Source of the DNA: Parcubacteria group bacterium
GTDB lineage: Bacteria > Patescibacteriota > Minisyncoccia > Phycocordibacterales > Phycocordibacteraceae
Length of the DNA: 64,000 nucleotides
Direction of reading: 5' to 3'
Assembly: GCA_028286825.1 (NCBI GenBank)
Contig: JAQBQV010000011.1
Location: forward strand, 12,920 to 76,919
Shown: one piece after another, positions 13,084-35,968 of the stretch
How the letters are laid out: every line of letters begins with the position of its first letter
How positions within the stretch are numbered: position 1 is the stretch's first letter
Program-made: the position numbers and the translations under genes
The notes under the pieces: generated by a model
Database searches by the model: none
What the model was told of the DNA's origin: nothing
The model's input: the letters and a program-made list of their open reading frames with translations, nothing else

Positions 13084-13085
13084 GT

Positions 13086-16008: not shown

Positions 16009-16024
16009 AACAAGTTGAATTGGT

Positions 16025-17043: not shown

Positions 17044-17190
17044 TCCGCGGTAGCTCAGTGGTAAGCCGTCCGAACGGCTTCCTCCCGGCGCTTGCCTCGG
17101 ATGACTGAAAGCAGACTTTCACTCATCACTCGGCGCGCTTGGTAGTAGAGCGGCTCGCAGAAAACGAGTGAGAGCATTTAGAATCGTAGT
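17044..17190 (+). pseudogene. Decayed tRNA copy. It has the tRNA-Asn 5' end plus degenerate D/anticodon-arm-like sequence and no matching 3' acceptor strand.
   Basis: The first 20 nt (TCCGCGGTAGCTCAGTGGTA) are identical to the 5' end of the downstream tRNA-Asn. Later GGTAGTAGAGCGGCTCGCAGAAAACGAG resembles its D/anticodon arms. No cloverleaf can be closed. Confidence 0.4.
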
Positions 17191-17195
17191 AACAT

Positions 17196-17267
17196 TCCGC
17201 GGTAGCTCAGTGGTAGAGCGGCTCGCTGTTAACGAGTTGGTCGTAGGTTCGAATCCTACCCGCGGAG
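17196..17267 (+). tRNA. tRNA-Asn(GTT).
   Basis: Manual cloverleaf fold. Acceptor TCCGCGG/CCGCGGA, D arm GCTC-AGTGGTA-GAGC, anticodon arm GCTCG-CTGTTAA-CGAGT with anticodon GTT, T arm GTAGG-TTCGAAT-CCTAC, discriminator G. No CCA is encoded. Confidence 0.85.
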
Positions 17268-18962: not shown

Positions 18963-19090
18963 AGCAGGCTGTGACTTATCGTAACACCTGAAAGATGGCA
19001 GTTATTGCTAGGTAATATCATCTTGCCGAATTGCCATTCTTTATTTCCCAAAGGGAATGAATTGAATTTGGTAATTTGGCAAAACATATA

Positions 19091-20284
19091 TTAAGAAGGT
19101 TCAAATAAGCTTGCCAACTCCACTTGAGGGTAACTAATGTCTCCTTCGGGTAACGACTCCACAAGAAAATATTCATCGGTCCTCCCCTTCTTTCTCCTGT
19201 CTATTAGCTTGCTGACCAAGAGGTCCCTCAGGGCCTCTCTTACATTCCTTTGCCCGATTTTCTTCTGTGCATAAACTATTTGGATAATGTCAGGCGTCAC
19301 TTTGGACTCTTCCTTAAGTATCTCGAGTATCAACTCCATCGCCTCTTCTTTTTTAGACTCTCGATCATCAACCTCACCAGCGAAGCGTATCAACGTAAGT
19401 ATCTCACCGGACTCGGCTATTGTGTCCGTCATCTCTACACAAAACGCATCAATCTCTTTACCGAGACGGTTCTTACGCTGGTATACCGATATTTTCTCTC
19501 CCTCTTTCTGCATCATGAGTAAGACTTCGACGCTCGCAGTCTTATCCTGGCTACCAAAGAGGTGCTCTTTTTTCGGTATTTTGCCCTCAAAGTTACTTGG
19601 TTTTCGGAAATGGTCGAGCCAAATTATACATACATCACGTTCCTTCAGCGCCTTGAATCGGCTGAATAGAGCTCTGACCTCTTCGGCTTTTTCTTCCTTT
19701 AATCCACCGGCAACAGATCGAAAGGTATCGATGATTACAACATCAAATCGGTTCTCGATGATATCGTCAACAAGATTCTGTGCAACGTCCTCCTTAGTCA
19801 AATTCAGTTCATCAACGGGCCAAATTGTAAGGTTATCGCTGTCCACGAAGCCAAGTTGACGTCCACGGCGCTGCAGCTCGCTTTTCGCATTCTCAGCATC
19901 GATATAAAGCACCTTACCCTGCAATGTAATAAACCTCTCATCATCAAGAAAGTTTGTTCCCATAGCAATACTACGCGCAAGTTCAAGTGCAACCCATGTT
20001 TTCCCTTCACCAGATATCGCAGCCAGAATGACCGAGCCTGCTCGCGGGATTAAGTTCGCGACTCGCCATCTATCTGTAGGGAATGTCATCGCATCGAGCT
20101 CGCTCCACCGAAGATATTTCTTCTCAGGTTCAATTTCAATGGCACTAATGCTTTTGCCAACATTCTTTGGCACGAGACGCTCTCGGCCTTCAAAGGTCGC
20201 TAAGTCTCCCCAATACGCGTCTTCATCCCTTGATTCCGGATCCATATATAATTCGGTACTTGCCGCCGCAGGATCGACATGCAA
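19091..20284 (-). CDS. RecA-fold AAA_25/RepA-like ATPase with a C-terminal winged-helix-like domain.
   Basis: Walker A (AISGEGKT) and Walker B (VLYIDAE, VVIIDTF) motifs with plasmid RepA/DnaB-like architecture. Confidence 0.6.
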   Translation of the reverse strand: MHVDPAAASTELYMDPESRDEDAYWGDLATFEGRERLVPKNVGKSISAIEIEPEKKYLRWSELDAMTFPTDRWRVANLIPRAGSVILAAISGEGKTWVALELARSIAMGTNFLDDERFITLQGKVLYIDAENAKSELQRRGRQLGFVDSDNLTIWPVDELNLTKEDVAQNLVDDIIENRFDVVIIDTFRSVAGGLKEEKAEEVRALFSRFKALKERDVCIIWLDHFRKPSNFEGKIPKKEHLFGSQDKTASVEVLLMMQKEGEKISVYQRKNRLGKEIDAFCVEMTDTIAESGEILTLIRFAGEVDDRESKKEEAMELILEILKEESKVTPDIIQIVYAQKKIGQRNVREALRDLLVSKLIDRRKKGRTDEYFLVESLPEGDISYPQVELASLFEPS

Positions 20285-20373
20285 ATTCGCCTGTGAGTAT
20301 CTGCTCCATAAGGCGGCTTATTTCTAGATACTGTGCCAACTCTTCATCTGACAGGCTACTGCCCCTGAGCGCC

Positions 20374-20631
20374 TTACTTACTGTCTGCAACTGTTCTGGT
20401 TTTAATCCTACTGATGTGTATCCCTTCATATATTGAATGTACTAATGCTATTAAGTGTTCGAAGTATTCGAGAGCAAGGTCATCTGATAGGTCCTCCCCC
20501 GTCTTCAGGCGGTGCATTTGTTTATATCGCTGTAGATAGAGTTGTTTATCGACCATAAAAGTAAAACCCACTATTTCCCTGACAGGCCACCGAATGTCAT
20601 CGGGTCTGTCGGGAAAGCAGGGGGCTTTCAC
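20374..20631 (-). CDS. Hypothetical small protein.
   Basis: 85-aa ORF inside the element. It overlaps a 68-aa ORF (20223-20429); only one of the two is likely real. Confidence 0.3.
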   Translation of the reverse strand: MKAPCFPDRPDDIRWPVREIVGFTFMVDKQLYLQRYKQMHRLKTGEDLSDDLALEYFEHLIALVHSIYEGIHISRIKTRTVADSK

Positions 20632-20792
20632 GAAGTGACATTCGGTATCCTCAACGAAAACGGCGGACTTATCGGAGTAATAGCCGTAGCATTACTCAAA
20701 TAAGTCCACCGTTATTCATCAGGGACTACTTAACTGTACCTGGTGCAAATAATTTGTATCTCCCCAGGTCGAAAAAAGGCGGTAGCTAGGGT

Positions 20793-21080
20793 CTAAGTTG
20801 CACCTATTAACGCTACATCAATTATGGGCGGCGGAAGAGGCTGTATCGGAGTGCCGAAAGAGCCACTGATTTCTGTAGCTTGTATTGCCTTCCCCCACGA
20901 ACGGTCAAAAAGCTCTCTGGCGGCAGCTACATCGCCGTTTTTTGCCTTTACGATGAGCGCCTCTGCAATGGGCTGTATATCTTTCATGAGCAGCTCTGAG
21001 AAGAGCTTACGAGCCTCCTCCGCGTTCTTTGCCGCGAAGCCTGGCTTACGCCCAGATCCTAATCTAAAGCCGCCTCTCAT
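20793..21080 (-). CDS. Hypothetical small basic protein, possibly DNA-binding.
   Basis: 95 aa with an N-terminal MRGGFRLGSGRKPG Gly/Arg-rich segment. Confidence 0.35.
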   Translation of the reverse strand: MRGGFRLGSGRKPGFAAKNAEEARKLFSELLMKDIQPIAEALIVKAKNGDVAAARELFDRSWGKAIQATEISGSFGTPIQPLPPPIIDVALIGAT

Positions 21081-25494: not shown

Positions 25495-25508
25495 ACTCGA
25501 CTCATAGT

Positions 25509-25550
25509 CGCCCGACAGAGCCCCGGCTCCTGTCGGGCGACTCTTTTATG
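25509..25550 (+). terminator. Type-A intrinsic terminator (CGCCCGACAGAGCCCCGGCTCCTGTCGGGCG plus T tract).
   Basis: Perfect 8-bp stem with a palindromic loop, followed by CTCTTTTAT. Confidence 0.7.
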
Positions 25551-25561
25551 CGAACGAACCA

Positions 25562-25588
25562 GTTTGAACATCCTCCACCCAGCGGAGC
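25562..25588 (+). repeat. Junction box (GTTTGAACATCCTCCACCCAGCGGAGC).
   Basis: Canonical box class. The downstream promoter is weak (TAAAAG-N17-TATACT). Confidence 0.65.
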
Positions 25589-25628
25589 ACAAAATAAAAG
25601 AAGTACTGACTCTGTTATACTTTTACCA

Positions 25629-26066
25629 ATGGTTGATAAGGAGACATTAGAAATAAAAGTACCTCCCCTACCACATGGCGTTTTGGATAAATTGGAGGAT
25701 AAAGACTTGAACGAATTATACCTTGGTTTAGATAGCGAGCTCGATAAAGCGGCAGAGCATCGAAGAAGAACTGTTAAAAAATTAATGGCTGGTTTTCTTT
25801 GGTTCATTAATTCACTTTTGTTTTTCAGCATAGGTCCTACTGATGCGCTGATGCAAATTTGGTCACTGGCAACGATGGGTTTGTTGCTTGTACTTTTCGG
25901 TAACACTCAGATCTCTTCGTATCTGGGGCCTCTCTGGCCAATAGCTGGAAGATTTGGTCAGCGTATCGATAGGCCGACTCCGCCAGTAGTGTTAGTAATC
26001 TTTGGCTGGTTATTATTATTTCTCGTATTATCAATTTTTAGCATCATTTTATATCAGAAGGGCTAA
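25629..26066 (+). CDS. Membrane protein with 3-4 TM helices (cassette 3).
   Basis: About 146 aa with hydrophobic helices (FLWFINSLLFFSIG, LATMGLLLVLFG, VVLVIFGWLLLFLVLSIFSII). Confidence 0.5.
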   Translation: MVDKETLEIKVPPLPHGVLDKLEDKDLNELYLGLDSELDKAAEHRRRTVKKLMAGFLWFINSLLFFSIGPTDALMQIWSLATMGLLLVLFGNTQISSYLGPLWPIAGRFGQRIDRPTPPVVLVIFGWLLLFLVLSIFSIILYQKG

Positions 26067-26111
26067 GTTGAAGCAGTTCGAAAATCATCCAGCCACCTGA
26101 GCCAGATAAAT

Positions 26112-26345
26112 TTACTTCCCAGAAGACAATGACTTCCCTTTAGGTTTATATTCGACCTTCCACGTCAGACCCGGTTTTACCCCAGCTATAGCTGGCAATA
26201 GATGGTTAAGCAGTTGTTCCGCTGTCATCTGAAATTTATTACCTTTCGCAGAAACCTTGACCCATCCATCTTTATCTCGAACGTATTTTTCTGTAAAGTT
26301 TTTTGTACCCATCGATATTATATAACTGTCATTTGTTAGCTTCAT
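26112..26345 (-). CDS. Hypothetical Lys-rich 77-aa protein, in opposite orientation within the array.
   Basis: Protein-like composition. It is flanked by a degenerate box (26075-26102) and box 4. Confidence 0.3.
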   Translation of the reverse strand: MKLTNDSYIISMGTKNFTEKYVRDKDGWVKVSAKGNKFQMTAEQLLNHLLPAIAGVKPGLTWKVEYKPKGKSLSSGK

Positions 26346-26401
26346 ACCGCAACATTACATCATAAATACCTAATAATTACGGACGAATTATTCTGAAAAC
26401 A

Positions 26402-26429
26402 GGTTCGAACGTCCTATAGCCAATGGAGC
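26402..26429 (+). repeat. Junction box (GGTTCGAACGTCCTATAGCCAATGGAGC) plus promoter.
   Basis: TTGACT (26434) -N17- TATAAA follows 4 nt downstream. Confidence 0.7.
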
Positions 26430-26511
26430 AAATTTGACTAATTAGACATTTTATAATATAAAGCAGTTCAGCTACTAGTTTTTCTGTTCACCATATCTGC
26501 GAGGAATCGAA

Positions 26512-26922
26512 ATGACCATTCCTGATTGTCTGTTACCGATTCATGACTACATAACAAGCGAGCTGAGGGAAAATCATGAACTTCTCTGCCTTTCGGATGC
26601 CCCTGATGTCAAACAACAGTTTGACGAAATGGAAGATGATTTCGACGATGTCGGAGGTGATCCTGATTTTGACGCTCGGGCTTTTATCAACTCGAGCTAC
26701 GAATACAAGATAGAATGTTGCCAACAAGCGCTGCGAGCGTTAACTGCAAGCGAGTATGATGTAGTCATAACCCACCTGAGTGTCGAACTAACTGCTCTAC
26801 GTGCGTACAGAGACGAGGTTACTAAATATGTCTCAAACATGAGCGGTCGTCAGCGCGAGCGGCTAGCAGCTAAAATTGGCCGACTCGAGCAATATTTACG
26901 AGTACTTGCAGAACAAAAATAG
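26512..26922 (+). CDS. Acidic hypothetical protein (cassette 4).
   Basis: 136 aa. GAGGAA RBS. An intrinsic terminator follows directly. Confidence 0.55.
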   Translation: MTIPDCLLPIHDYITSELRENHELLCLSDAPDVKQQFDEMEDDFDDVGGDPDFDARAFINSSYEYKIECCQQALRALTASEYDVVITHLSVELTALRAYRDEVTKYVSNMSGRQRERLAAKIGRLEQYLRVLAEQK

Positions 26923-26930
26923 AACGACAG

Positions 26931-26975
26931 CCGCCACGAGGAAGAATGCTTCTCTCGTGGCGGTCTTCTTATTTC
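26931..26975 (+). terminator. Intrinsic terminator (CCGCCACGAG-loop-CTCGTGGCGG plus T tract).
   Basis: 10-bp stem followed by TCTTCTTATTTCTT. Confidence 0.7.
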
Positions 26976-26985
26976 TTATACACCA

Positions 26986-27068
26986 GTTCGAACATCCACT
27001 ACCACAAAAGAGTACTTTCATTTCTCTAACCTCGAGTACGAGCAAGAGAAATTGGTCGCCAGCGGAGC
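26986..27068 (+). repeat. Split junction box. GTTCGAACATCCACTACCA, then a 54-nt hairpin insertion, then CCAGCGGAGC, plus promoter.
   Basis: Insertion 27005-27058 begins CAAAAGAGTACTTTCATTT and ends AAATTGGTCG, with an internal stem TTTCTCT/AGAGAAA. TTGACG (27075) -N17- TATATT follows. Confidence 0.7.
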
Positions 27069-27195
27069 TAAGGGTTGACGATCATTTTTTTAAGTGTTAT
27101 ATTTGTACTGGAACCTTAGTGCCATCCTATCTCTGGTAAGCGTAAAAGCTTCACCCGTTCCGCCCAACCCTGGGCGGCTTACCAAGGAGACAACG

Positions 27196-27450
27196 ATGGA
27201 CGAGATGTTCTTCATTACCGACCCCGAAGATCCGAGCAAGATTTATGCTGGTCCGCTCTCGAAAGAGGCGACTGGTGTAAAACTGACGGAACTTCTGCGA
27301 CCGCTTCTCACTGGCAGCGACTTCCACTTCATACGAAGTGCTGGAAGCTATCAGAGCATCGACGAGGTGCTTGAGGAGTGTCGTAAGGAACTGAGCGGCT
27401 GTCTGTATTTCGACGTCGTTCCAGCTTCTGTGGTTGGTAATCGAGCCTGA
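27196..27450 (+). CDS. Hypothetical 84-aa protein (cassette 5).
   Basis: AAGGAG RBS. Starts MDEMFFITDPEDPSK. A terminator follows. Confidence 0.5.
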   Translation: MDEMFFITDPEDPSKIYAGPLSKEATGVKLTELLRPLLTGSDFHFIRSAGSYQSIDEVLEECRKELSGCLYFDVVPASVVGNRA

Positions 27451-27460
27451 ATGTCAGGCA

Positions 27461-27497
27461 GTCCCCGCAAATCATCGCGGGGACTTTTGTTTTTATA
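27461..27497 (+). terminator. Intrinsic terminator (GTCCCCGC-loop-GCGGGGAC plus TTTTGTTTTT).
   Basis: 8-bp GC stem plus T tract. Confidence 0.75.
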
Positions 27498-27508
27498 CAT
27501 GAATGCAA

Positions 27509-27535
27509 GTTCGAACATCCTCTAGCCAGTGGAGC
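27509..27535 (+). repeat. Junction box (GTTCGAACATCCTCTAGCCAGTGGAGC) plus promoter.
   Basis: TTGACG (27540) -N17- TATTAA. Confidence 0.75.
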
Positions 27536-27624
27536 AAATTTGACGATACAGAAGACTTGTGTTATTAAATCTGTTGGCAGGTCTTACAGACCTTTTTGAC
27601 GTTGCACAATTGAGAGGAATCACG

Positions 27625-28206
27625 ATGACAGAAGAAACTTGGGAAATTATCGGAAAGGGTTCAAACACAATCGCAAGTAAGTGTGTGCGATACCTCTTGA
27701 GATACGCATGGCTTCGGGTCGCTCAAAGCAATGTGAGAAAGGAGTTCTTTGTCCTGCTAAAGAAAGTCATTACGCAGGAGACTATACAAAAGCTTTCACC
27801 AAAAAAAGACACGCAGGAGACTGAAGTGCCGCTCTATTTCGTCACTATGCTGTCTGGAAGTAAGGCGAAAATTCGTCTTGTCCTCGGCACGGATGAACTA
27901 GCACACAGCAACGTCGCTCTTATCAAGTGCGAGTGCGAAAAGACCGACGGTTGGGAGAACTTTTCGATTTCGAACTATAATTACGATGAGTGGTTCATCG
28001 ATACTGAGGCGATTAGCCTATCGCTTGATACCGAACGCATGGTATTTATCGACACAGAAGGAAAAGCAACGAGGGAACCAATTCTGGAGATCGCTGAAGA
28101 GGGCGAAAAAATTATCATCACTGCGCCAATAAAGGGAATCACGAACGCCGAGTTCGATCAGGCATTCGCAAAAAAGAAAAAGGAAAGGAAGGTCGCCGCT
28201 TCTTGA
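27625..28206 (+). CDS. Hypothetical 193-aa protein (cassette 6).
   Basis: GAGAGGAA RBS. Starts MTEETWEIIGKG. Lys-rich C-terminus. Confidence 0.55.
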   Translation: MTEETWEIIGKGSNTIASKCVRYLLRYAWLRVAQSNVRKEFFVLLKKVITQETIQKLSPKKDTQETEVPLYFVTMLSGSKAKIRLVLGTDELAHSNVALIKCECEKTDGWENFSISNYNYDEWFIDTEAISLSLDTERMVFIDTEGKATREPILEIAEEGEKIIITAPIKGITNAEFDQAFAKKKKERKVAAS

Positions 28207-28213
28207 ACTATTA

Positions 28214-28258
28214 ACCCCTTACAGAGGATGAATCCTCCGTAAGGGGTGATTCATTTCC
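28214..28258 (+). terminator. Hairpin (CCCCTTACAGAGG-loop-CCTCCGTAAGGGG) with a weak T tract.
   Basis: 12-bp stem. The downstream tract is TGATTCATTTCC. Confidence 0.45.
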
Positions 28259-28269
28259 ATACAAAACAA

Positions 28270-28296
28270 GTTCGAACAACCTCTATCCAGCGGAGC
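28270..28296 (+). repeat. Junction box (GTTCGAACAACCTCTATCCAGCGGAGC) plus promoter.
   Basis: TTGACA (28303) -N17- TATACA. Confidence 0.75.
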
Positions 28297-28395
28297 TAGG
28301 GGTTGACAGAGGTGGTGTTGTATGCTATACAAGAGTTAGGCCAAGCCGTATAGGCTTGATGATGAACGTTGTTAAACCACTTCGTGGGAGTTCCA

Positions 28396-28797
28396 ATGCG
28401 CGTTAAAATGAAAGTAAGGGTTTGCTTCGCTGACGCCGAGAAAATGTTTGCCGCTGGAGTTCGAGCGGCAGCGCTCGATTTGGTCACGCTGGCCATGACG
28501 TCAGCAAGCGCCTGGTGGTTTTTGTCCACCGACATGCCAGACTTTCTGGTGCTCGAGAAACTGGCGCTCGCAGTCGGCTGGTTTCTGGTGTTCGTTGCCT
28601 TATGCGGTGGCCTTCCGGAAGTTCTCAAACAGGTGTGGCCCTACTGGCAACTCGCACTTCAGATCTACTGGCGCGAAAGCAGAGTCGGACAACTTTCGCT
28701 CTTCCCTCACGGTGACCATGAAGTCCAAAGGCCGTATGGGCCGGTGGGACGGGAACCGAGCAAGAAAGCGGTGGCGCTAAAGCCCGCCATCAACTGA
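28396..28797 (+). CDS. Small membrane protein with two TM helices (cassette 7).
   Basis: GGGAG RBS. Starts MRVKMKVRV. The + orientation is preferred over the overlapping minus ORF 28296-28628 because it fits the promoter/terminator framing. Confidence 0.45.
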   Translation: MRVKMKVRVCFADAEKMFAAGVRAAALDLVTLAMTSASAWWFLSTDMPDFLVLEKLALAVGWFLVFVALCGGLPEVLKQVWPYWQLALQIYWRESRVGQLSLFPHGDHEVQRPYGPVGREPSKKAVALKPAIN

Positions 28798-28816
28798 CGC
28801 TGACATCAATCATACA

Positions 28817-28858
28817 CACCCGACAGAGCCCCGGCTCCTGTCGGGTGTTCTGTTTTTA
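28817..28858 (+). terminator. Type-A terminator (CACCCGACAGAGCCCCGGCTCCTGTCGGGTG plus T tract).
   Basis: Same hairpin as the copy at 25509. Confidence 0.7.
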
Positions 28859-28871
28859 ATGGACGACAGTG

Positions 28872-28898
28872 GTTCGAACATCCTCTACCCAGCGGAGC
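28872..28898 (+). repeat. Junction box matching the consensus exactly (GTTCGAACATCCTCTACCCAGCGGAGC) plus promoter.
   Basis: TTGACA (28903) -N17- TATGAT. Confidence 0.8.
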
Positions 28899-29023
28899 AA
28901 AATTGACATAGTATGTAGAATGTCATATGATATTTCTGATTCTTAGTCCGTACGGCTAAGTCGCCCCATGGGGTAAGGACGTTATCTGTGCGTCGTCTCA
29001 CGGAGATTAAAAGGAGAGCTCGA

Positions 29024-29458
29024 ATGAGCGATGGAAACGGTCAGTGTTATCAATTGGAATCTGGACCCTCACGAGAAGATTTCTTCGATAGTTTGCGTCT
29101 AGGAATGGAGGCCGAGTCATTACGGGTGCTGGAATTTTGGTGCACACATCAGCGCCCTACAGACTGCACAGGGCGAATCATGTACATCGAAATTCAAGGC
29201 ATTCATCGTTACGGCGAAGAAGAAGACAAGTGGTTCTTCTTCGGTCGTGAACGGGCCTTGATTCTTCTTCCAGATGGTCCCATGGAGGGTTGGAAAGCTC
29301 CCAGTATGGATTTCGCTTTCGGCACGTGGGACACCCAACATCGGAAAGGAGCGGTGATGATGCACAAAAACGGTTCTTTTTTCACTGCACCCATGACTGA
29401 GCGCGAAATTTTCGAACGCGCATACCCCACAGCTAAGAAGCGACCAAGAAGACGTTAA
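29024..29458 (+). CDS. Hypothetical 144-aa protein (cassette 8).
   Basis: AAAAGGAGAG RBS. Starts MSDGNGQCYQLESG. Confidence 0.55.
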   Translation: MSDGNGQCYQLESGPSREDFFDSLRLGMEAESLRVLEFWCTHQRPTDCTGRIMYIEIQGIHRYGEEEDKWFFFGRERALILLPDGPMEGWKAPSMDFAFGTWDTQHRKGAVMMHKNGSFFTAPMTEREIFERAYPTAKKRPRRR

Positions 29459-29461
29459 ACG

Positions 29462-29503
29462 CCGCTCGCCAGATACCGCGTCTGTTCGAGCGGTTTCTGT
29501 TTT
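29462..29503 (+). terminator. Type-B terminator (CCGCTCG-loop-CGAGCGG plus TTTCTGTTTTT).
   Basis: Same stem family as the copy at 33979. Confidence 0.65.
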
Positions 29504-29515
29504 TACTCAGAACAG

Positions 29516-29583
29516 GTTCGAACGTCATCCACCCATCGGAGCCCTCAATAGATTTAGTTCGAACTTCCTCGACCGATAGGAAA
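29516..29583 (+). repeat. Two tandem junction boxes (GTTCGAACGTCATCCACCCATCGGAGC, then a degenerate GTTCGAACTTCCTCGACCGATAGGAAATACC).
   Basis: Second copy 14 nt after the first, with no ORF between them. Confidence 0.6.
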
Positions 29584-29641
29584 TACCCCTTCATAAAAAC
29601 CTCATAGCATACACACGCGTTAGGGTGTACTGTTCCTGTAC

Positions 29642-30655
29642 ATGAACCTACCTAGTTATGGGTTAGATCCTCAGCTTTCAGAAGCAATTTTCGGTACTAT
29701 CCGTGAACCCATGGTCGTACTGAGCGAAGACTTACACGTCATTGTCGCAAGTCGCGCTTTTTATGAAAAATTCCAGACGCCTTTTGGTGATGCTGAAGGT
29801 AAACTGTTCTACGAACTGGGCAATGGGCAATGGAACGTCCCTCGCTTGCGTACCTTGCTTGAAGAGGTAATTCCAAAAAAGAGTGTCGTTCGCGACCATG
29901 AGGTTGAGCATGTGTTCGACCATCTAGGGAAACGAATCATGCTGATTAATGCCCGTGAGATTGTATATGAGAACGGACTAAAAAAAATGCTTCTCTCCAT
30001 CCTTGACGTAACAGAGCTGCGTGCTGGCGAGGAACACAAGCTTCAATTAATGGAGCAAAAGGATACTCTTCTGAAAGAAATGCGGCATCGCATTGCCAAC
30101 AGCCTTCAGCTTATCGCGAGCATTATTCTACTGAAAGCACATACAGTCCCTTCCGAAGAAAGCCGTATGCATCTTGAAGACGCTCACGACCGCATTCTCT
30201 CTATTGCTACCGTACAGAGAAATCTGGATCCAACTGACTCAGGTGCTGAAGTACCAATCACTGAATACTTAAGGACGCTCTGTTCGAGCCTCGCAAAATC
30301 AATGATTGGAGGGCGAAAGCCGATACAGCTTGTTGTGCAGGGAGATGCGAGTACGGTTACGCCCGATGAGGCAATCAGTCTGGGGCTCATGACAACCGAG
30401 CTCGTCATAAATTCACTAAAGCACGCATTCCCATCTGGCGAAGGCAACGTGACCGTGAGTTATCACACGCTAAAGACTGACTGGATTTTGGTGATCAAGG
30501 ACGATGGAGTTGGATATTCCTTAGCGGTAAACAATAAGGAAGACGGGCTCGGGACAAGCATAATCGAGTCCCTCGCAAATCAAATGAAGGCCACCATTAA
30601 GCGAGAAAGTTCACACCTGGGTACGACTGTTTCTGTTGGGAGCGCCGCGACCTAA
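29642..30655 (+). CDS. Cytoplasmic PAS-HisKA_2-HATPase sensor histidine kinase.
   Basis: An N-terminal PAS-like domain, an EMRHRIANSLQLIASIIL HisKA_2 H-box, and a C-terminal ATPase (ELVINSLKHAF ... GLGTSIIESL). Confidence 0.75.
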   Translation: MNLPSYGLDPQLSEAIFGTIREPMVVLSEDLHVIVASRAFYEKFQTPFGDAEGKLFYELGNGQWNVPRLRTLLEEVIPKKSVVRDHEVEHVFDHLGKRIMLINAREIVYENGLKKMLLSILDVTELRAGEEHKLQLMEQKDTLLKEMRHRIANSLQLIASIILLKAHTVPSEESRMHLEDAHDRILSIATVQRNLDPTDSGAEVPITEYLRTLCSSLAKSMIGGRKPIQLVVQGDASTVTPDEAISLGLMTTELVINSLKHAFPSGEGNVTVSYHTLKTDWILVIKDDGVGYSLAVNNKEDGLGTSIIESLANQMKATIKRESSHLGTTVSVGSAAT

Positions 30656-30670
30656 TCCTAAGATACGTAC

Positions 30671-30697
30671 GTTCGAACTTCCTCTAGCCAGTGGAGC
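30671..30697 (+). repeat. Junction box (GTTCGAACTTCCTCTAGCCAGTGGAGC) plus promoter.
   Basis: TTGATA (30705) -N17- TATATA. No terminator separates the kinase stop from this box. Confidence 0.75.
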
Positions 30698-30787
30698 ATG
30701 GGGGTTGATATGTAATAAGAATTGTTTTATATAAAGAAAGGCGAGTCTCTTCAGGCTCACAGTTCAAACTTCCATTAGGAGAAAGCT

Positions 30788-31192
30788 ATGGCAAAGGATG
30801 TCAGCGCTGCAGAGCAGTCAGGACTCTCGTTTAAGGAGCGTTGCACGCATGCGAAGGAATACGTCGAGGCGCAGTGGACCTTCATCCAGAACAACGCCAC
30901 AATTGCACTCATGGGTCAGCAGGCGAATGCCACCGACTCCGTGGAACACGAACGGCAACAGGAGCGCCGCCTCGCGGAAATCGCAGATGCAGACCTGCGA
31001 CAAGACCTTCGAGAGTCATTCGGCGAATTGTCCAGTCGCATGGAAAAGTTTTACAGCAAACTCAAAGAAGCCGATCGTGAGCTGATGCAAAAGCTCTGGT
31101 CGCTCACAATCGAGAGCTGCAAAAGCCTGTATGGCGAGGATGCCACCGCTGTGGCACTCAATCAGACAAATCGCGCCCGCCAAGGCAATTGA
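30788..31192 (+). CDS. Hypothetical 134-aa protein (cassette 10, gene 1).
   Basis: AGGAGAAAG RBS. Helical, charged composition. Confidence 0.55.
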   Translation: MAKDVSAAEQSGLSFKERCTHAKEYVEAQWTFIQNNATIALMGQQANATDSVEHERQQERRLAEIADADLRQDLRESFGELSSRMEKFYSKLKEADRELMQKLWSLTIESCKSLYGEDATAVALNQTNRARQGN

Positions 31193-31218
31193 CATCATCA
31201 GTCTGAAAGGAATCGACG

Positions 31219-31401
31219 ATGGTATCGGACGAGAGTATCGGAAAAGAGTTTGGACTGACCCAAGCTCAGACTGCCGCGCTTCTTCATGACGACCCTGCCT
31301 GGGCGCTACACATTGGCCTCGAGAACTTCCAATCAAATGGACCGATGGCCGACTTCCTAAGGAGGAAGATCGCTAATGCAGAAAGTGATATTACCGCTTA
31401 A
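31219..31401 (+). CDS. Hypothetical 60-aa protein (cassette 10, gene 2).
   Basis: AAAGGAATCG RBS. A type-A terminator follows. Confidence 0.4.
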   Translation: MVSDESIGKEFGLTQAQTAALLHDDPAWALHIGLENFQSNGPMADFLRRKIANAESDITA

Positions 31402-31411
31402 TTTTCATCAA

Positions 31412-31452
31412 CGCCCGACGGAGTCCCGGCTCCTGTCGGGTGTCTCTTTTAT
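31412..31452 (+). terminator. Type-A terminator variant (CGCCCGACGGAGTCCCGGCTCCTGTCGGGTG plus T tract).
   Basis: Hairpin plus CTCTTTTAT. Confidence 0.65.
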
Positions 31453-31464
31453 ACGAACGAATCA

Positions 31465-31491
31465 GTTCGAACATCCTCCGGCCAGCGGAGC
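31465..31491 (+). repeat. Junction box (GTTCGAACATCCTCCGGCCAGCGGAGC) plus promoter.
   Basis: TTGACG (31498) -N17- TATTCT. Confidence 0.75.
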
Positions 31492-31609
31492 CAGCTATTG
31501 ACGTAATCTATATAACGTGCTATTCTGTTCACAGGACTGAATGGCTGCATTGAAGCCATTTGGTGACCTGATCCGATATTTGATAAATTATATATGAGGA
31601 GTGCCGACT

Positions 31610-31891
31610 ATGAAATTTCGCTACAGTGTCATCATTGCAGCGCTGATCGGGCTCGCAGCATGCGAGAAAGCACCACTTCGCACCGAATCCAGCAATAACG
31701 CGCAGATCAACGTCCAACTGCTTTTCGAGCATGATGGATGCAAGATCTACCGTTTCGCGGACAATGGCTACAACCTCTACTTCACGAAGTGTGACCGCGG
31801 CCAAAGCCACGTAAGCTGGAACCAAACGATGATGGTCGGGAAAGCTGTACTCACAAGGCCTATGGAGGTACAGACCAATTACGACCAATGA
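31610..31891 (+). CDS. Small lipoprotein (cassette 11).
   Basis: GAGGAG RBS. Signal peptide plus lipobox (MKFRYSVIIAALIGLAAC). Confidence 0.6.
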   Translation: MKFRYSVIIAALIGLAACEKAPLRTESSNNAQINVQLLFEHDGCKIYRFADNGYNLYFTKCDRGQSHVSWNQTMMVGKAVLTRPMEVQTNYDQ

Positions 31892-31913
31892 CACTGGTCA
31901 ACGACCTCATTAA

Positions 31914-31956
31914 CGCCCGACAGAGCCCCGGCTCCTGTCGGGCGTCTCTTTTTATA
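31914..31956 (+). terminator. Type-A terminator.
   Basis: CGCCCGACAGAGCCCCGGCTCCTGTCGGGCG plus TCTCTTTTTAT. Confidence 0.7.
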
Positions 31957-31996
31957 CAAGATTTGGAATGTAATATGTCCCCTTCTCTCCTTGTAT

Positions 31997-32027
31997 CCAA
32001 GTTCTAATAGCCTCAGCAGTGCGGAGC
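31997..32027 (+). repeat. Junction box, variant class (CCAAGTTCTAATAGCCTCAGCAGTGCGGAGC) plus promoter.
   Basis: Identical to the box at 24642. TTGACA (32033) -N17- TATATA. Confidence 0.75.
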
Positions 32028-32107
32028 AAAATTTGACATTTATATTATAGTGTTTTATATATAAGTTGGGCAACCTAGTTCATCACTTACCTCGAAAGGA
32101 GGCGCAC

Positions 32108-32704
32108 GTGAAAGATTTCGCTTTCGCTCTTAATGTCTTCGGCGCTTGTCTCGGGTCCCTTACTGCTTGCTTATACGCCCTGCGTGTTTGGCAAAAAAAG
32201 GAGTGTGCCAATCTAGCGACCTGGTCCATCATCTTTATTTTGGATTTCGTCGGCCTTTATCTCACGTATGTCACCGGCAACCACGAGCCATATATCCAGA
32301 TCGGCTGGTGCATAGCGGTAACGCTCATCGTCGCCGCCGCTTGGATACGTAAAGGTGATTGGTTATGGAAAGGGACTGACACTGTCGTACTCGTCACTTG
32401 TGCCATGTCAGTACTCGTGTGGGTTACGAGCAAGGAAGTCTTCCTTTCCCTGTTTGGTTATCTCGCCGCGGTATACGGATCGTCCATACCGCAAGCAAGA
32501 GACTATACCAGTGATCCGCATGCCGCACATAAAAGTGCCTGGATGTGGCAGTTGAGTCTGATCGCAATTCTGTTTCCAATATCGGCAAAGCTGCTCGATG
32601 GTAAATACGGCATCGAACACACATTGGTGTACGTTGCGTTGTTTGTACTTAACATCATCATGGCAGCGCTCTGCATGCGGCGGACTACCCGCCACACTTT
32701 CTAA
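32108..32704 (+). CDS. Polytopic membrane protein with about 6 TM helices (cassette 12, gene 1).
   Basis: AAGGAGG RBS and a GTG start (MKDFAFALNVFGACLG...). Confidence 0.55.
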   Translation: MKDFAFALNVFGACLGSLTACLYALRVWQKKECANLATWSIIFILDFVGLYLTYVTGNHEPYIQIGWCIAVTLIVAAAWIRKGDWLWKGTDTVVLVTCAMSVLVWVTSKEVFLSLFGYLAAVYGSSIPQARDYTSDPHAAHKSAWMWQLSLIAILFPISAKLLDGKYGIEHTLVYVALFVLNIIMAALCMRRTTRHTF

Positions 32705-32716
32705 AAGGAACCTCAG

Positions 32717-32953
32717 ATGCAAACCCCGGAAGAAGTCAGCGTAGTAAGTCACGTGCCGTTAGTTCTCGTCTTGAGTCTACCGGACGGCTGCACATCAGGT
32801 AGATGGGAGGCGGCAGAATCATTCGCCGCTAGCATCACCCGGGCTCGTCAGTTGTATCCCGGCCGCCAGTTCCAATTCATACCCTTTTCCTACAAGACAG
32901 ACGGCGACGGAAAAGATCCCGCATTGGAAACGATGCTCGCAATCGCACAATAA
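32717..32953 (+). CDS. Hypothetical 78-aa protein (cassette 12, gene 2).
   Basis: AAAGGAAC RBS. A type-A terminator follows. Confidence 0.4.
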   Translation: MQTPEEVSVVSHVPLVLVLSLPDGCTSGRWEAAESFAASITRARQLYPGRQFQFIPFSYKTDGDGKDPALETMLAIAQ

Positions 32954-32957
32954 CAAC

Positions 32958-32998
32958 CACCCGACGGAGCCCCGGCTCCTGTCGGGTGTCTTCGTTTT
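32958..32998 (+). terminator. Type-A terminator.
   Basis: CACCCGACGGAGCCCCGGCTCCTGTCGGGTG plus TCTTCGTTTTCAT. Confidence 0.65.
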
Positions 32999-33006
32999 CA
33001 TACACG

Positions 33007-33034
33007 GATTCGAACATCCTCCAGCCAGCGGAGC
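33007..33034 (+). repeat. Junction box (GATTCGAACATCCTCCAGCCAGCGGAGC) plus promoter.
   Basis: TTGACA (33041) -N17- TATATA. Confidence 0.75.
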
Positions 33035-33127
33035 TAGAAATTGACAAACGCTATTAGTTATGCTATATAAACTGGGTGCTAAGTTCCTTAGCTAAGACAT
33101 ACTTCACTTAAGAACAGGAGGAAGCAG

Positions 33128-33697
33128 ATGAAAAAGGTACTGCCTTGCTTGATAATTGTCCTCATCGGGAGCGTCATTTCTGTAGTGTTCGAGAATCGGT
33201 CCGGCATGATGAATGCCTTACAGACCGCAGGAATTCAATGGACGACGTCGGTCGTCTTCGCTATCGGGGCAGGCACCGGCATGTTCGCCTATCGGCTCCT
33301 CAGGAAAGCGACGCTCGAAAGTATGAGTATGCTGTGGCAGCGCTTGTTCAAAGGGGTGCTTCTCGTTGGTCTGTGCTCCTTGTTCATCTTTGCGGCGGAT
33401 TACGAACATAAGAGACGCGAGTCAAAAAGCGTAGAGCATCTTTCATATCACAAATACTACAAAGCTGGTGATCTAGTGGAGATGCGGACGGACGGACGGA
33501 GAGGGGTCGTTCTTGAAGTGTCGGGGTGCCTGTCAACGCATATGGACAGTCATCGTTCATGCAATTACAGCGTGCGCTTCCCCAGCTCCGCTGTACGTAC
33601 TAATACTCACCTGCTCGATCCTGATGGACCGATTCGTGCAGTGCCGTATGAGGTGTTGATCGTTTACGACTACGAACTCACACGTGCCCAGACATGA
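33128..33697 (+). CDS. Membrane protein with 3 TM helices and a C-terminal soluble domain (cassette 13, gene 1).
   Basis: AGGAGGAAG RBS. 189 aa. Confidence 0.6.
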   Translation: MKKVLPCLIIVLIGSVISVVFENRSGMMNALQTAGIQWTTSVVFAIGAGTGMFAYRLLRKATLESMSMLWQRLFKGVLLVGLCSLFIFAADYEHKRRESKSVEHLSYHKYYKAGDLVEMRTDGRRGVVLEVSGCLSTHMDSHRSCNYSVRFPSSAVRTNTHLLDPDGPIRAVPYEVLIVYDYELTRAQT

Positions 33698-33751
33698 ACT
33701 CATAAAGTCGGTCGGGGTGCTTTGTTTCTAATCCACTTGAGGAGAATCAGC

Positions 33752-33961
33752 ATGGCAACAATCGGCATAGCATTCGACGCGTTCCCGGAACAAGGCATAT
33801 ACCTCGGTAAGAAAGTACGTGTCTGTTTTAGCTACGACAAGTCGCGAACAATTGACGGAACGGTTGTCCGGGACGACATTGAAGATCCGGGACATACCAT
33901 CATAAAGCTCGAAGATGGTCGCCACGTCCTGGCAACTGAGTGCCAATACCAGCCGCTGTAA
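33752..33961 (+). CDS. Hypothetical 69-aa protein (cassette 13, gene 2).
   Basis: GAGGAGAATC RBS. Starts MATIGIAF. Confidence 0.4.
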   Translation: MATIGIAFDAFPEQGIYLGKKVRVCFSYDKSRTIDGTVVRDDIEDPGHTIIKLEDGRHVLATECQYQPL

Positions 33962-33978
33962 AGTGCTTACGACGCAAT

Positions 33979-34020
33979 CCGCTCGACAGACACCGAGTCT
34001 GTTCGAGCGGTTCTGTTTTT
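33979..34020 (+). terminator. Type-B terminator.
   Basis: CCGCTCGACAGACACCGAGTCTGTTCGAGCGG plus TTCTGTTTTT. Confidence 0.65.
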
Positions 34021-34028
34021 AAACACAG

Positions 34029-34055
34029 GTTCGAACATCTTCTATCCAGCAGAGC
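34029..34055 (+). repeat. Junction box (GTTCGAACATCTTCTATCCAGCAGAGC) plus a weaker promoter.
   Basis: CTGACT-N16-TATAGT. Confidence 0.65.
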
Positions 34056-34139
34056 TGACTTTTTTAGTAATTGTGCTATAGTTAAGATAGAAGTTGCACT
34101 GGGTTAACCAAGCAGTCTTACCACCGTGAAGGAATTCTG

Positions 34140-34820
34140 ATGACCCTATTCAAAGCCGTTCTGTTCTTACTCTCTAGCGTTATTGCCTGTGCTCCGTGCG
34201 GAGCACAGCAACAACTGACTCAACAAACGTTGATACAGCAGGTGCTCAATCCCTTGCGTCAGCATATTGTTGCTTCGTATCCAATCTCAGATCTGAAAGT
34301 GAAGTTCGTTGATGCCCTCGGCGATTCCGCTGTTACGCTTGCAGTCGCGCAAAGATACTCGGTAGTTGGAGGGCATGGCATTGGCGGAGATACACCACTA
34401 GCTTTTAGCGGCCCTCGACCCGATGGGGCAGGGCCTGCCGTGATCATCGTTTTCGAGAACTTCGTCGAGCGAATGCAGTACGGAGTAAAGTTCGCGAAGA
34501 GCCAGAAAGAGTACGAAGAGTACCTTGAAGACTTGCTCATTGGTGTGTACTTGCACGAGTACTACCACATCAAGAAGCAAGGATTCTGGAAACTCAATAA
34601 TACTCGAGCCGAGATGATTGCATTCGAAGCTGATTGCTGGAAATACACTGTGGAGGAAATACTTCTGCCCATGCAGCGAGGTGGGCGAGGCAAATTGCTA
34701 CCAGGCACCTTTGATGACACTGTTCTTGCTCTTTACACAGAGCTTAAGGGTAAGACATCCGATCCTCGATGGAAGAAGTTGTTTGAGGATACGTACGGCA
34801 AGAGCAAGCCAAGTTCGTAG
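34140..34820 (+). CDS. Secreted protein with a HEYYH (HExxH) motif (cassette 14).
   Basis: AAGGAA RBS. Signal peptide (MTLFKAVLFLLSSVIACAPCGAQ). A GVYLHEYYHIKKQ motif. Confidence 0.55.
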   Translation: MTLFKAVLFLLSSVIACAPCGAQQQLTQQTLIQQVLNPLRQHIVASYPISDLKVKFVDALGDSAVTLAVAQRYSVVGGHGIGGDTPLAFSGPRPDGAGPAVIIVFENFVERMQYGVKFAKSQKEYEEYLEDLLIGVYLHEYYHIKKQGFWKLNNTRAEMIAFEADCWKYTVEEILLPMQRGGRGKLLPGTFDDTVLALYTELKGKTSDPRWKKLFEDTYGKSKPSS

Positions 34821-34837
34821 TCTGCAATGCACTATCA

Positions 34838-34872
34838 ACCACCAGACAGCGTAAGCTGCTTCGGTGGTTTAC
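34838..34872 (+). terminator. Hairpin terminator (AACCACC-loop-GGTGGTT plus TACGTTTTCAT).
   Basis: 7-bp stem, long loop, weak T tract. A TTGACA promoter at 34919 follows without a canonical box. Confidence 0.4.
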
Positions 34873-35024
34873 GTTTTCATGACATCAAATTATCCATGAT
34901 CCAATGTGGAGAGTTTAATTGACAATTATGTAAACACGTACAATAGTAAATATAGTTTCACTTCTGCTGTCTGCAGAGCATATCCTGTTCATTCTCTGTT
35001 TCTGTTATTCACGAGGAGGCTTCG

Positions 35025-35447
35025 ATGACGTCCGGACTCGTTTCGCCAATGTACCCTGTACTCCACTTCCCTATTCCGGGACAGCCCAGGGAGATATGCC
35101 TAATAGCGTCACAGCAACACTTTGGAATCCTTATTCCGATTGAAAGCTGGGACGAGGCAGTACTCAGGCCCCTCTTCAACTCGACGCTGGATACTTTTTC
35201 GTTGTGGTATCAGAAATATGTCGATTTTGTGAAAGGGCTAGAAAAACATACTCTCCCGCCGCCGCCGAAAGATGATATCGTGCTTTTTGCTGACGTCTTT
35301 TCGACCACTAAACCTACTGCGGCAGATCTGCCCGAACACAGGATTAGTACAGCGACAATGGAGGGCGGGGGCGATTTCCTCTTTGTGAGAGAAAGAGGCG
35401 TGCAAATTGGTGAGTTCTTCCATCAGTCATTGACGATTCGCCAGTAA
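35025..35447 (+). CDS. Hypothetical 140-aa protein (cassette 15).
   Basis: GAGGAGG RBS. A terminator follows. Confidence 0.5.
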   Translation: MTSGLVSPMYPVLHFPIPGQPREICLIASQQHFGILIPIESWDEAVLRPLFNSTLDTFSLWYQKYVDFVKGLEKHTLPPPPKDDIVLFADVFSTTKPTAADLPEHRISTATMEGGGDFLFVRERGVQIGEFFHQSLTIRQ

Positions 35448-35469
35448 CCGAGACTCCGTTTACGACTCA

Positions 35470-35512
35470 ACCGCCACCAACAGAACCGTTGGGAGGCGGT
35501 TCATCATTTCAT
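35470..35512 (+). terminator. Intrinsic terminator (AACCGCC-loop-GGCGGTT plus CATCATTTCATT).
   Basis: 7-bp GC-rich stem. Confidence 0.5.
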
Positions 35513-35522
35513 TAAGCAGTAG

Positions 35523-35606
35523 TTCGAACATCCTCTACCACCACAAAAGAGTACTTCCATTTTTATAGTCGCTCTGCTCCTTAAAAATTAGGTCGCCAGC
35601 GGAGCC
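35523..35606 (+). repeat. Split junction box. GTTCGAACATCCTCTACCA, then a 55-nt hairpin insertion, then CCAGCGGAGC.
   Basis: Insertion 35542-35596 starts CCACAAAAGAGTACTTCCATTT and ends AAATTAGGTCG, with an internal stem ATTTTTA/TAAAAAT. It is homologous to the 27005-27058 insert, and the stems differ in a compensatory way. TATAAT lies at 35633. Confidence 0.7.
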
Positions 35607-35644
35607 CTGAATGGACTTAGTTCGAAACTGGTATAATTTTTCCA

Positions 35645-35914
35645 ATGAACACGGGTCGATCCGACAATTCACTAGAGAGTTTCGACCGCACAAAATTCAT
35701 TGCGAAAATTTTGGCCGTTATCATAACTACCTTTGCGATATTTTTCGCAGCGTTATTTTTTCCTGACCATTGCTACGCTAATTGTCGCATTTCTGTTTAT
35801 TATATTGACCGTCCTCAGACGTGGTTTGAGCTGGGCGTTTGGTTTATCGCTAGTCTGGCCTTTTCCACCTATCTAGTCTTTTTTAGAAAAGGAAAAAAAC
35901 TTTCTCTGGTATAG
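35645..35914 (+). CDS. Small membrane protein with 2 TM helices (cassette 16).
   Basis: 89 aa (FIAKILAVIITTFAIFFAALFF ... WFIASLAFSTYLVFF). Confidence 0.45.
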   Translation: MNTGRSDNSLESFDRTKFIAKILAVIITTFAIFFAALFFPDHCYANCRISVYYIDRPQTWFELGVWFIASLAFSTYLVFFRKGKKLSLV

Positions 35915-35937
35915 CCTTTTATCGTTCTTTAATACAC

Positions 35938-35968
35938 CAAGTTCAAATATCCTCTACCTAGCGGTAGC
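35938..35968 (+). repeat. Degenerate junction box (CAAGTTCAAATATCCTCTACCTAGCGGTAGC).
   Basis: About 22/27 match to the consensus. The preceding ATACACCAA tract is as in other junctions. Confidence 0.55.

Follow-up and report, generated by a model that had tools for sequence, protein, structure and literature searches.

The window, a 64,000-nt stretch of genomic DNA from a Parcubacteria group bacterium, contains an array of small gene cassettes beside a tRNA-Asn gene. The array holds 14 copies of a 27-nt junction box, and 2 of the 14 are split at one exact point by a short insert with a complementary central stem. The insert appears to be a composite of the repeat system of the array itself, and not foreign DNA, a gene or a classic transposon. 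Tentatively, and short of calling it probable, we explain a split box as a hybrid junction, or a gene-less mini-insert of attachment-site arms, made by the site-specific recombination of the island in which the array lies.

Two junction boxes are split at the same point

All features in this section are on the + strand. The left half of split box 1 (GTTCGAACATCCACTAC, 26986-27002) matches the T-loop and the 3' strand of the T-stem of tRNA-Asn, and its right half (CCAGCGGAGC, 27059-27068) matches the 3' strand of the acceptor stem plus the discriminator. The sequence between the halves reads as an insert of 56 nt (copy 1 or w1, CACAAAAGAGTACTTTCATTTCTCTAACCTCGAGTACGAGCAAGAGAAATTGGTCG, 27003-27058). 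Copy 1 comprises a conserved 5' part (27003-27023), stem arms ATTTCTCT and AGAGAAAT (27020-27027 and 27045-27052) that enclose a palindromic loop (CTCG/CGAG, 27028-27044), and a conserved 3' TGGTCG (27053-27058). Split box 2 has the left half GTTCGAACATCCTCTAC (35522-35538) and the same right half (35596-35605). Its 57-nt insert (copy 2 or w2, 35539-35595) is homologous to copy 1, with stem arms ATTTTTA and TAAAAAT (35559-35565 and 35582-35588), a loop at 35566-35581 and a 3' TAGGTCG (35589-35595).

Both boxes are interrupted after box position 17 (...TCTAC), just before CCAGCGGAGC. The 5' ends of the two inserts differ by one base and a CAC repeat, and the 3' ends are TTGGTCG and TTAGGTCG. 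An 18-mer common to both, AAAAGAGTACTTYCATTT, occurs exactly twice in the window, where 0.09 occurrences are expected.

The original prediction had described two boxes with homologous inserts between the left half and the right half, and had quoted central stems that differ in sequence and remain complementary. Boxes, inserts and stems are present as described. The first split box lies at the positions given for it (26986-27068), while the second, placed at 35523-35606, is off by one and actually spans 35522-35605. Both split boxes are also present in independent Logan contigs of SRR13312974 (L068 and L069). Since they are reproduced in an independent assembly of the same sample, they are not an assembly artefact of the metagenome-assembled genome (MAG). 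Split box 1 is followed by a sigma-70-type promoter, TTGACG-17-TATATT with TG (27075-27103), that serves the next cassette gene (ATG at 27197), and the spacing from box to promoter is the same as at unsplit boxes.

The junction box resembles the 3' end of tRNA-Asn

The consensus of the box is GTTCGAACATCC-TCTAN-CCAGCGGAGC. The tRNA-Asn (GTT) gene that anchors the array (17196-17268, +) is the only tRNA in the window. When the box is aligned with the 3' 23 nt of this tRNA, from the T-loop to the discriminator, all 23 tRNA bases are matched with three short gaps, and the alignment score is reached by 0 of 5000 shuffles. The 12 unsplit boxes, found by a box sequence search of the window, place the cassette array at 25562-35967 (+). 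They start at 25562, 26076, 26403, 27509, 28270, 28872, 29516, 30671, 31465, 33008, 34029 and 35941, all on the + strand. Boxes of the window are mostly preceded by a GC-rich hairpin, a T-run and ATAC, and a TTGAC-17-TATAAT promoter lies ~5 nt after most of them.

The box recurs in metagenomes. A pattern scan yielded 90 loci (L070-L159) from many different studies and, in them, ~150 unsplit boxes with strong conservation at each of the 27 positions. tRNA-Asn is present in 18 of the 90 loci, and in all 18 the boxes follow it downstream and share its orientation. Genes are hardly ever common to two of these loci. The box has zero matches in IMG/VR.

A large serine recombinase of 568 amino acids (17256-18962, -; Pfam domains Resolvase, Recombinase and Zn_ribbon_recom) has its stop codon inside the 3' end of tRNA-Asn. 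Homologues overlap the 3' end of tRNA-Asn also in L160 (83% amino-acid identity) and L132 (35%). In L099, the recombinase adjoins a box rather than the tRNA, and the flank of L101 matches L132, with the contig cut just left of it. An AAA_25/DnaB-like protein follows the recombinase in the window (19091-20284, -).

Other tRNA-Asn-derived repeats accompany the boxes. True copies of the tRNA-Asn 3' end (TCCTACCCGCGGAGC) are present in L105, L131 and L102, and probably in L081. L148 (reverse complement, ~1170-1230) carries a partial tRNA-Asn from the anticodon loop to the 3' end, of which ~41 nt are identical to the tRNA of the window. ARAGORN calls no tRNA there, and the partial copy is a long attachment-type repeat.

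The box is thus a look-alike of the tRNA-Asn 3' end that separates cassettes in arrays of Paceibacteria (Patescibacteria). Taken together, the tRNA match, the distribution of the box, the recombinase and the other tRNA-Asn repeats point to a putative attachment-type repeat, within an array that is, judged from its sequence, a tRNA-seeded, recombinase-associated hypervariable island. The array, as distinct from the insert, has what marks a tRNA-seeded integrative island: an adjacent tRNA, direct partial-tRNA repeats, a site-specific recombinase and variable cargo.

Two other roles for the box were considered and rejected. TTGAC lies 3-8 nt after the box in only 22 of 149 cases (21 at +4 to +6), and many boxes, in many lineages, are followed by AAA and a terminator, like tRNA-Asn itself, and have no promoter. 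Therefore, the box is not primarily a promoter element. Nor is it a conserved hairpin or a dif/Xer-type or attI-type site, because on inspection its arms are not inverted repeats, and its internal pairing is weak and shows no covariation.

Several further observations concern the boxes of the window. Near-identical terminator hairpins (CCCGACAGAGCCCCGGCTCCTGTCGGG) precede four different boxes (25500-25545, 28810-28855, 31400-31445 and 32950-32990), which suggests that the terminator and the box are copied as a unit. At the boxes at 29516-29568 and 35596-35634, a second GTTCGAA(C/A) motif follows ~14-15 nt later and replaces the usual TTGAC; the one at 35596-35634 overlaps an extended -10 (TGGTATAAT). 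Spurious open reading frames (ORFs) across boxes, in the window (for example 25548-26066) and in L070-L159, translate as ...FEHPPPSGA..., and gene callers may in this way create a false 'protein family' from the box repeat.

The insert belongs to a small family

The insert was searched for with nhmmer and a covariance model over 618 kb, comprising the window and the metagenome loci. Further copies exist, and the family has five distinct full members: w1, w2, L105:880-937 (-), L152:5349-5405 (-) and L115:284-343, the last identical to L146:8202-8261. Partial members are present at 36950-37002 of the window and in L131. L105 comes from a close relative, as its tRNA-Asn is identical to that of the window.

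The copies w1, w2, L105 and L152 have the same split point and the same orientation amid unrelated flanking genes. The split point corresponds to the T-stem/acceptor junction of tRNA-Asn. The L115/L146 copy lies outside any box, is inverted relative to the local array and is separated by 24 nt from a genuine remnant of the tRNA-Asn 3' end. Both genes next to it in L146 lie antisense to it. The bases before the five full copies are CTAC, CTAC, GTAC, CAGC and TATC. Between copies, the identity of both ends of the insert is 81-100%. The loops measure 16-20 nt, and the variable middle falls by eye into two unrelated types. The left half-boxes that flank the insert are degenerate in L105 and L152, with 7-9 of 15-16 positions kept.

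The third copy in the window (36950-37002, +) is truncated and degenerate, and is a weak nhmmer match. It consists of a degenerate box-left (..TCAAATATCCCCGAG) followed by the 5' two-thirds of the insert (CACTGCTAGAGCACTTCCCTTTTTTAGTCACTCT), and stops at the ATG of a SET-domain gene. It has neither the A-rich arm nor box-right, and it marks the last junction of the array. The sequence is not native to the SET gene, since it is absent upstream of the SET gene of the related locus L163.

The split box of L105 and the unsplit box at 28270 lie in homologous terminator-plus-spacer modules (28195-28330 in the window) that share the rare AACCTC variant. Thus, the same type of module exists with and without the insert. 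The earlier suggestion that the long form is ancestral and the short boxes are deletion derivatives is disfavoured by this insert-less module of terminator and box, by the excess of unsplit boxes (~150 versus 4 split) and by the degenerate half-boxes of L105 and L152.

Copies are rare elsewhere. The 73 kb of source genome contain two full copies and one partial copy, none away from array junctions. A scan of 185,579 species genomes with the 18-mer, a pattern that fits only the AAAAGAG variant of the window, returned 63 single matches, all attributable to chance and none with the 3' end or a box. Matches to the insert pattern in IMG/VR are likewise due to chance and lie in coding sequence. A phage origin was rejected, as there is no megablast match in 50,697 phage records and the box is absent from IMG/VR. 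The insert is not the 5' leader of one gene family, because the flanking genes are unrelated in every copy. It is also not a remnant of a large serine recombinase element with split halves, because such elements adjoin a tRNA or box that is intact, and not a box that is split. By eye, the inserts show no terminal inverted repeat (TIR) or target-site duplication (TSD) of the insertion-sequence (IS) type; no comparison with an IS database was made.

The central stem is maintained by compensatory changes

The original prediction had read the two differing stems as compensatory covariation, and had staked this on further copies and on support for the covariation. Both are found, and the three added homologues back the claim. 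In an alignment of the five sequences made by hand, three pairs of the AT-rich stem are changed on both sides, and one pair shows a one-sided wobble change. Of the stem cells, 97-100% are paired, compared with 33-57% in slid controls, and the covariation score is reached by 0 of 500 shuffles. RNAalifold keeps the AT-rich stem and extends it by an outer helix with many U-G pairs, GUACU/GGU-CGC; in this long hairpin, 61 of 61 cells pair. A model of two hairpins (ACCA/TGGT and AAG/CTT) was rejected as less consistent than this single long hairpin.

All wobble cells (G-U or U-G), of which the first model has four and the long hairpin has more, are on the + strand of the insert. This mildly favours a folded + strand. 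Either folding of a single strand or a symmetric site for protein binding could keep the T-tract complementary to the A-rich arm. The folding energies of single inserts are no better than those of shuffles (z-scores -0.1 to -1.8), and the minimum-energy fold of w2 lacks the stem.

Origin of the split boxes

Under the explanation that we favour, the insert would be built from a left and a right arm, separable from each other, with a variable stretch between them. The sequence of the right arm is TTAAAAAyTrGGTCG. It would derive from tRNA-Asn, from the anticodon loop to the variable loop, and a longer attachment site of the tRNA-Asn type would have it as its left arm. In the insert, the left arm is CACCACAAGAGTACTTCC-ATTTTT; it is similar to the descending strand and T-tract of the terminators that flank boxes, and may come from them. 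A split box would then have the layout box-left|arm ... arm|box-right. Site-specific recombination at the box centre, that is, at the T-stem/acceptor junction, would have produced it as a gene-less mini-insert or a deletion scar, and the hybrid junction would later have been passed on by descent and have entered several arrays along with cassettes. A box that is split is probably inactive, because the half-boxes around the insert are decayed in L105 and L152.

The tRNA origin of the right arm is best seen in the L115/L146 copy. Its 3' arm and flank, TTAA-AAATTGGTCGCAGTTATCGA, align with TTAATCAATTGGTCGCAGGT-TCGA of tRNA-Asn, from the anticodon loop into the T-loop. Within the alignment, 12 consecutive nt are identical (AATTGGTCGCAG), and its score is reached by 1 of 1000 shuffles. 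On this alignment, the conserved TTAAAAAyTrGGTCG looks like a decayed stretch of tRNA-Asn.

The partial copies point to arms that can be separated. L131 has the 3' arm without the 5' arm, joined to box positions 8-27. Its pairing partner there is the T-tract of a genuine terminator; the two form GTTTTTA/TAAAAAC, which adds one more base pair that has changed on both sides. The window copy at 36950-37002 has the 5' arm without the 3' arm, behind its degenerate box-left. By eye, the 5' arm matches the terminator of L148 at ~17 of 18 positions and that of L131 as CACCACAAG..CTT..CATTTT. In addition, ...GGTCG| is followed by three different right-hand partners, namely box positions 18-27, box positions 8-27 and a T-arm-like sequence. 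A hybrid junction explains why split point and orientation are fixed, why the arms can be separated, why the 3' arm looks like tRNA, why the middle varies and why the half-boxes of split boxes decay.

Several points weigh against this explanation. An interval of 56 nt cannot circularise as duplex DNA, so the model has to invoke either a deletion inside the element or one ancestral rearrangement with later spread. No full-size element bounded by box-left|5' arm and 3' arm|box-right was found, and the crossover point of the recombinase at the box centre is putative. The likeness of the 3' arm to tRNA is significant only for L115 with its flank, and that of the 5' arm to terminators is not significant alone (nhmmer E 0.45 for L131 and E 1 for L148). 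Moreover, the 5' 22-mer of the insert is identical between copies at 15-22 of 18-22 aligned positions, and is thus better kept than the half-boxes. A pure scar does not predict that the 22-mer outlasts the half-boxes, which suggests that the element itself is under selection. The conservation of the 5' arm and the stem is poorly explained, and the restriction of G-U cells to one strand fits a folded single strand better than a relic.

Alternative explanations

The insert could instead be a miniature non-autonomous element that targets the box, either REP-like (repetitive extragenic palindromic) or derived from the IS200/IS605 type, and inserted by a trans-acting recombinase or transposase, possibly on single-stranded DNA. 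This is unlikely. Units of the REP or IS200/IS605 type have subterminal hairpins, lack TIRs and TSDs, and insert in one orientation 3' of a short specific sequence. The insert has a hairpin and no TIR or TSD, and its orientation is fixed in four of five copies, but the tetranucleotides before it vary. Several observations fit such an element. The boundaries are precise and without target duplication, and the orientation is the same in four independent cassette contexts. The homologous modules of L105 and window 28270 show presence and absence, one copy (L115/L146) is outside a box and inverted, and the insert is better conserved than its flanks. The stem covaries while the apex varies, and other small hairpin inserts exist at other box positions (L141 and L102). 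However, there are only five distinct full copies in 618 kb of array-rich DNA and none elsewhere in the 73 kb of source genome, and no transposase was identified within those 73 kb. The bases that precede the copies do not form a constant target, and a unitary mobile element predicts neither separate arms nor a tRNA-like 3' arm. A classic miniature inverted-repeat transposable element (MITE), one of the mechanisms offered earlier, does not fit: by eye, the ends CACCAC and GGTCG are not inverted repeats, the flanks rejoin as TCTAN|CCAGCGG without duplication, and four of the five distinct copies found in 618 kb are in one target.

A more doubtful possibility is a functional structure of the + strand. 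It would act either as a cis-acting RNA transcribed by read-through of the upstream terminator, or as an attC-like single-stranded recombination hairpin for cassette capture. The compensatory stem changes, the fully paired long hairpin of RNAalifold, the G-U/U-G cells on the + strand only and the conserved single-stranded 5' leader CACCACAAGA all speak for it, as does the variable apex, which is like the variable terminal structure of attC. The RNA version meets several difficulties. Rfam, including its tRNA model, gives no match at the gathering threshold, nor at E<=10 for copy 1 or E<=1 for L115, L152, L105, L131 and L069. Scans find no sigma-70-type promoter before the insert on either strand and no terminator after it, and the insert sits upstream of the -35 of the next gene. 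The copy in L146 is antisense to both its neighbours, the folding energies do not exceed those of shuffles, and the w2 minimum-energy fold is without the stem. The structured RNA of the original prediction has no Rfam match, no promoter of its own and one antisense copy. The insert is also not an intrinsic terminator, because its stem is A/T-rich and runs into TrGGTCGCC, and the terminator scan finds none. As for attC, the insert is an imperfect palindrome whose base is conserved and whose central or terminal part varies, but the R''/R' core sites (RYYYAAC/GTTRRRY) are absent, and all five copies end in CACCAC... and ...TTrGGTCG. A canonical attC site, also offered earlier, does not fit these ends. 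Among the 20 window ORFs scanned with Pfam, there is no IntI-type tyrosine integrase, and the only recombinase beside the array is the large serine recombinase. An integron-like capture of cassettes at tRNA-Asn in Paceibacteria, in which the box would be the recombination site, the hairpin its attC-like or arm-type partner, and the split boxes trapped intermediates that show crossover at the T-stem/acceptor junction, is improbable.

Equally improbable is a neutral relic, in which one old rearrangement, either a collapse of tandem modules or a fold-back duplication of a T-tract, has been kept by descent and the covariation is mutational or due to chance. The pairing of the A-rich 15-mer of L131 with a genuine terminator T-tract would fit this, as would the weak thermodynamics, the small set of five sequences and the low-complexity A/T composition of the stem. 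However, the ends are 81-100% identical across lineages whose half-boxes have decayed, three stem pairs have changed on both sides after divergence, and w1 and w2, in one genome, combine near-identical ends with unrelated loops. A small Cys-rich peptide encoded on the minus strand, from the insert through box-left (MKVLFCGSGCSNWC..., MEVLFCGGRGCSNYCLMK), can scarcely be entertained. Copy 1 does have an ATG with GAGG 8 nt upstream, and the first 5-6 codons are alike in all copies. However, a 2-nt indel between the window copies and L115, L152 and L105 shifts the frame after codon 5, the ORFs read from the sequences are 41, 18, 38, 10 and 6 amino acids long, and conservation at the DNA level explains the likeness. 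The peptide was rejected because the frame is not kept between copies.

Neighbourhood and other repeats

The host is an uncultured, ultra-small bacterium of the candidate phyla radiation (CPR). The Fmt protein of the window is identical to one from a 'Parcubacteria group' MAG, and its relatives are named Paceibacterota, Minisyncoccia or Kaiserbacteria. L163, a relative with the same def-fmt...tRNA-Asn synteny (11487-20819), has no box in the 9 kb after tRNA-Asn, as if its site were empty or held something else. The SET-domain genes of L163 and of the window (37003-37476) are 45% identical. A search of neighbouring arrays by Fmt homologues gave one more locus with tRNA-Asn and a large serine recombinase, one locus that has tRNA-Asn and lacks a box, and no new insert copy. 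The recombinase/helicase segment of the window, between tRNA-Asn and the first box, contains a full-length match to the LOOT RNA motif of Rfam (RF03000; 21182-21300, +; 72 bits, gathering score 46), which holds a T-loop-like GGTTCGAAAT.

A module of ~100-190 nt follows tRNA-Asn or a box in L105 (reverse complement, ~2367-2610), L131, L102 and L081, and ends in the tRNA-Asn 3'-end copy TCCTACCCGCGGAGC. In L105 and L131, it starts with AAAATGAA, a terminator and CATTTTGCTCCGCGG; in L105, a TTGACA promoter lies directly after it. Other GC-rich hairpin inserts (CCCTGCCTGCCGGTAGGCAGGG and CCTGCCTGCGCAGACAGG) occur at other box positions in L141 (2382, -) and L102 (1092, -), both on contig Ga0196963_10000176. 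In the window, TTTTTAAAACTAGCGGAGC (52143-52164, +) follows a terminator and looks like the A-rich 3' arm joined directly to the final 6 nt of a box. The likeness could be due to chance; if it is real, arm-type junctions would bracket 37.0-52.1 kb.

Comparison with known systems

We found no description of such arrays in CPR bacteria in the literature, and the nearest published concept that we found is the tycheposon island. Tycheposons of Prochlorococcus start at a tRNA and carry partial-tRNA attachment repeats between cargo segments (Hackl et al., bioRxiv 10.1101/2020.12.28.424599). A large serine recombinase can act as their integrase, they also have a helicase-type replication gene, and successive insertions push older ones inward and leave degenerate remnants (bioRxiv 10.1101/2020.12.28.424599). 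The array of the window likewise starts at a tRNA, has scattered partial-tRNA repeats and a large serine recombinase, and has an adjacent helicase-type gene (AAA_25, 19091-20284). Here, too, later insertions would have displaced earlier ones inward, with degenerate remnants left over. In contrast, its host belongs to the CPR and its tRNA is Asn. The 27-nt consensus of the box is strongly conserved and has 5 bases beyond those of any local tRNA-Asn, and the box is no copy of the local tRNA end. Most units of the window consist of one small gene that has a promoter and a terminator of its own. Furthermore, hairpin-carrying split repeats are not described in the part of the tycheposon preprint that was consulted (bioRxiv 10.1101/2020.12.28.424599).

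Integrons share with the array the mostly single-gene cassettes between a recurrent site and the recombinase gene at the array head, and attC sites share with the insert a hairpin with conserved base and variable apex. However, the insert lacks the R''/L''-L'/R' boxes (RYYYAAC...GTTRRRY), and the 27-nt box is not a palindrome. The recombinase here is a serine recombinase and not an IntI tyrosine recombinase, the cassettes have their own promoters, and the hairpin is present at only 2-3 of ~15 junctions.

REP sequences and bacterial interspersed mosaic elements (BIMEs), IS200/IS605-derived elements and MITEs are, like the insert, short non-coding hairpin units in intergenic repeats, and the absence of TIR and TSD and the fixed orientation are as in IS200/IS605. 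The insert differs from all of these in its very low copy number, in lying nearly always in one target and in having no constant 5' tetranucleotide. It differs from REP and IS200/IS605 in that no RAYT or TnpA was identified in the 73 kb of source genome read, and in its separate arms, which look tRNA- and terminator-derived. It differs from MITEs in lacking TIR and TSD.

T4-type phages reportedly have PeSL mobile regulatory cassettes, said to have been described by Arbiol et al. in 2010, in which modules of an intergenic stem-loop and an early promoter flank small variable genes and apparently mediate shuffling. The array resembles them in that repeated intergenic modules of stem-loop and promoter flank small variable genes. 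Unlike PeSL cassettes, it lies in a bacterial chromosome, its box has zero matches in IMG/VR, and its module is centred on a tRNA-like box that has no adjacent promoter in most lineages.

Implications

The insert is a rare, undescribed small family, and the tRNA-Asn-anchored cassette arrays around it, with their tRNA-mimic junction, are the more interesting discovery. CPR bacteria (Patescibacteria) have tiny genomes, and their gene gain is poorly understood. The split boxes led to hypervariable arrays anchored at tRNA-Asn, to a junction that mimics the tRNA 3' end and is conserved across metagenomes, and to large serine recombinases at the array head. Should the insert be an RNA or a mini-element that targets the box, the family would be new, small and confined to this array system. 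If the split boxes are hybrid junctions, they would mark the probable point of strand exchange and give a concrete substrate pair for the recombinase.

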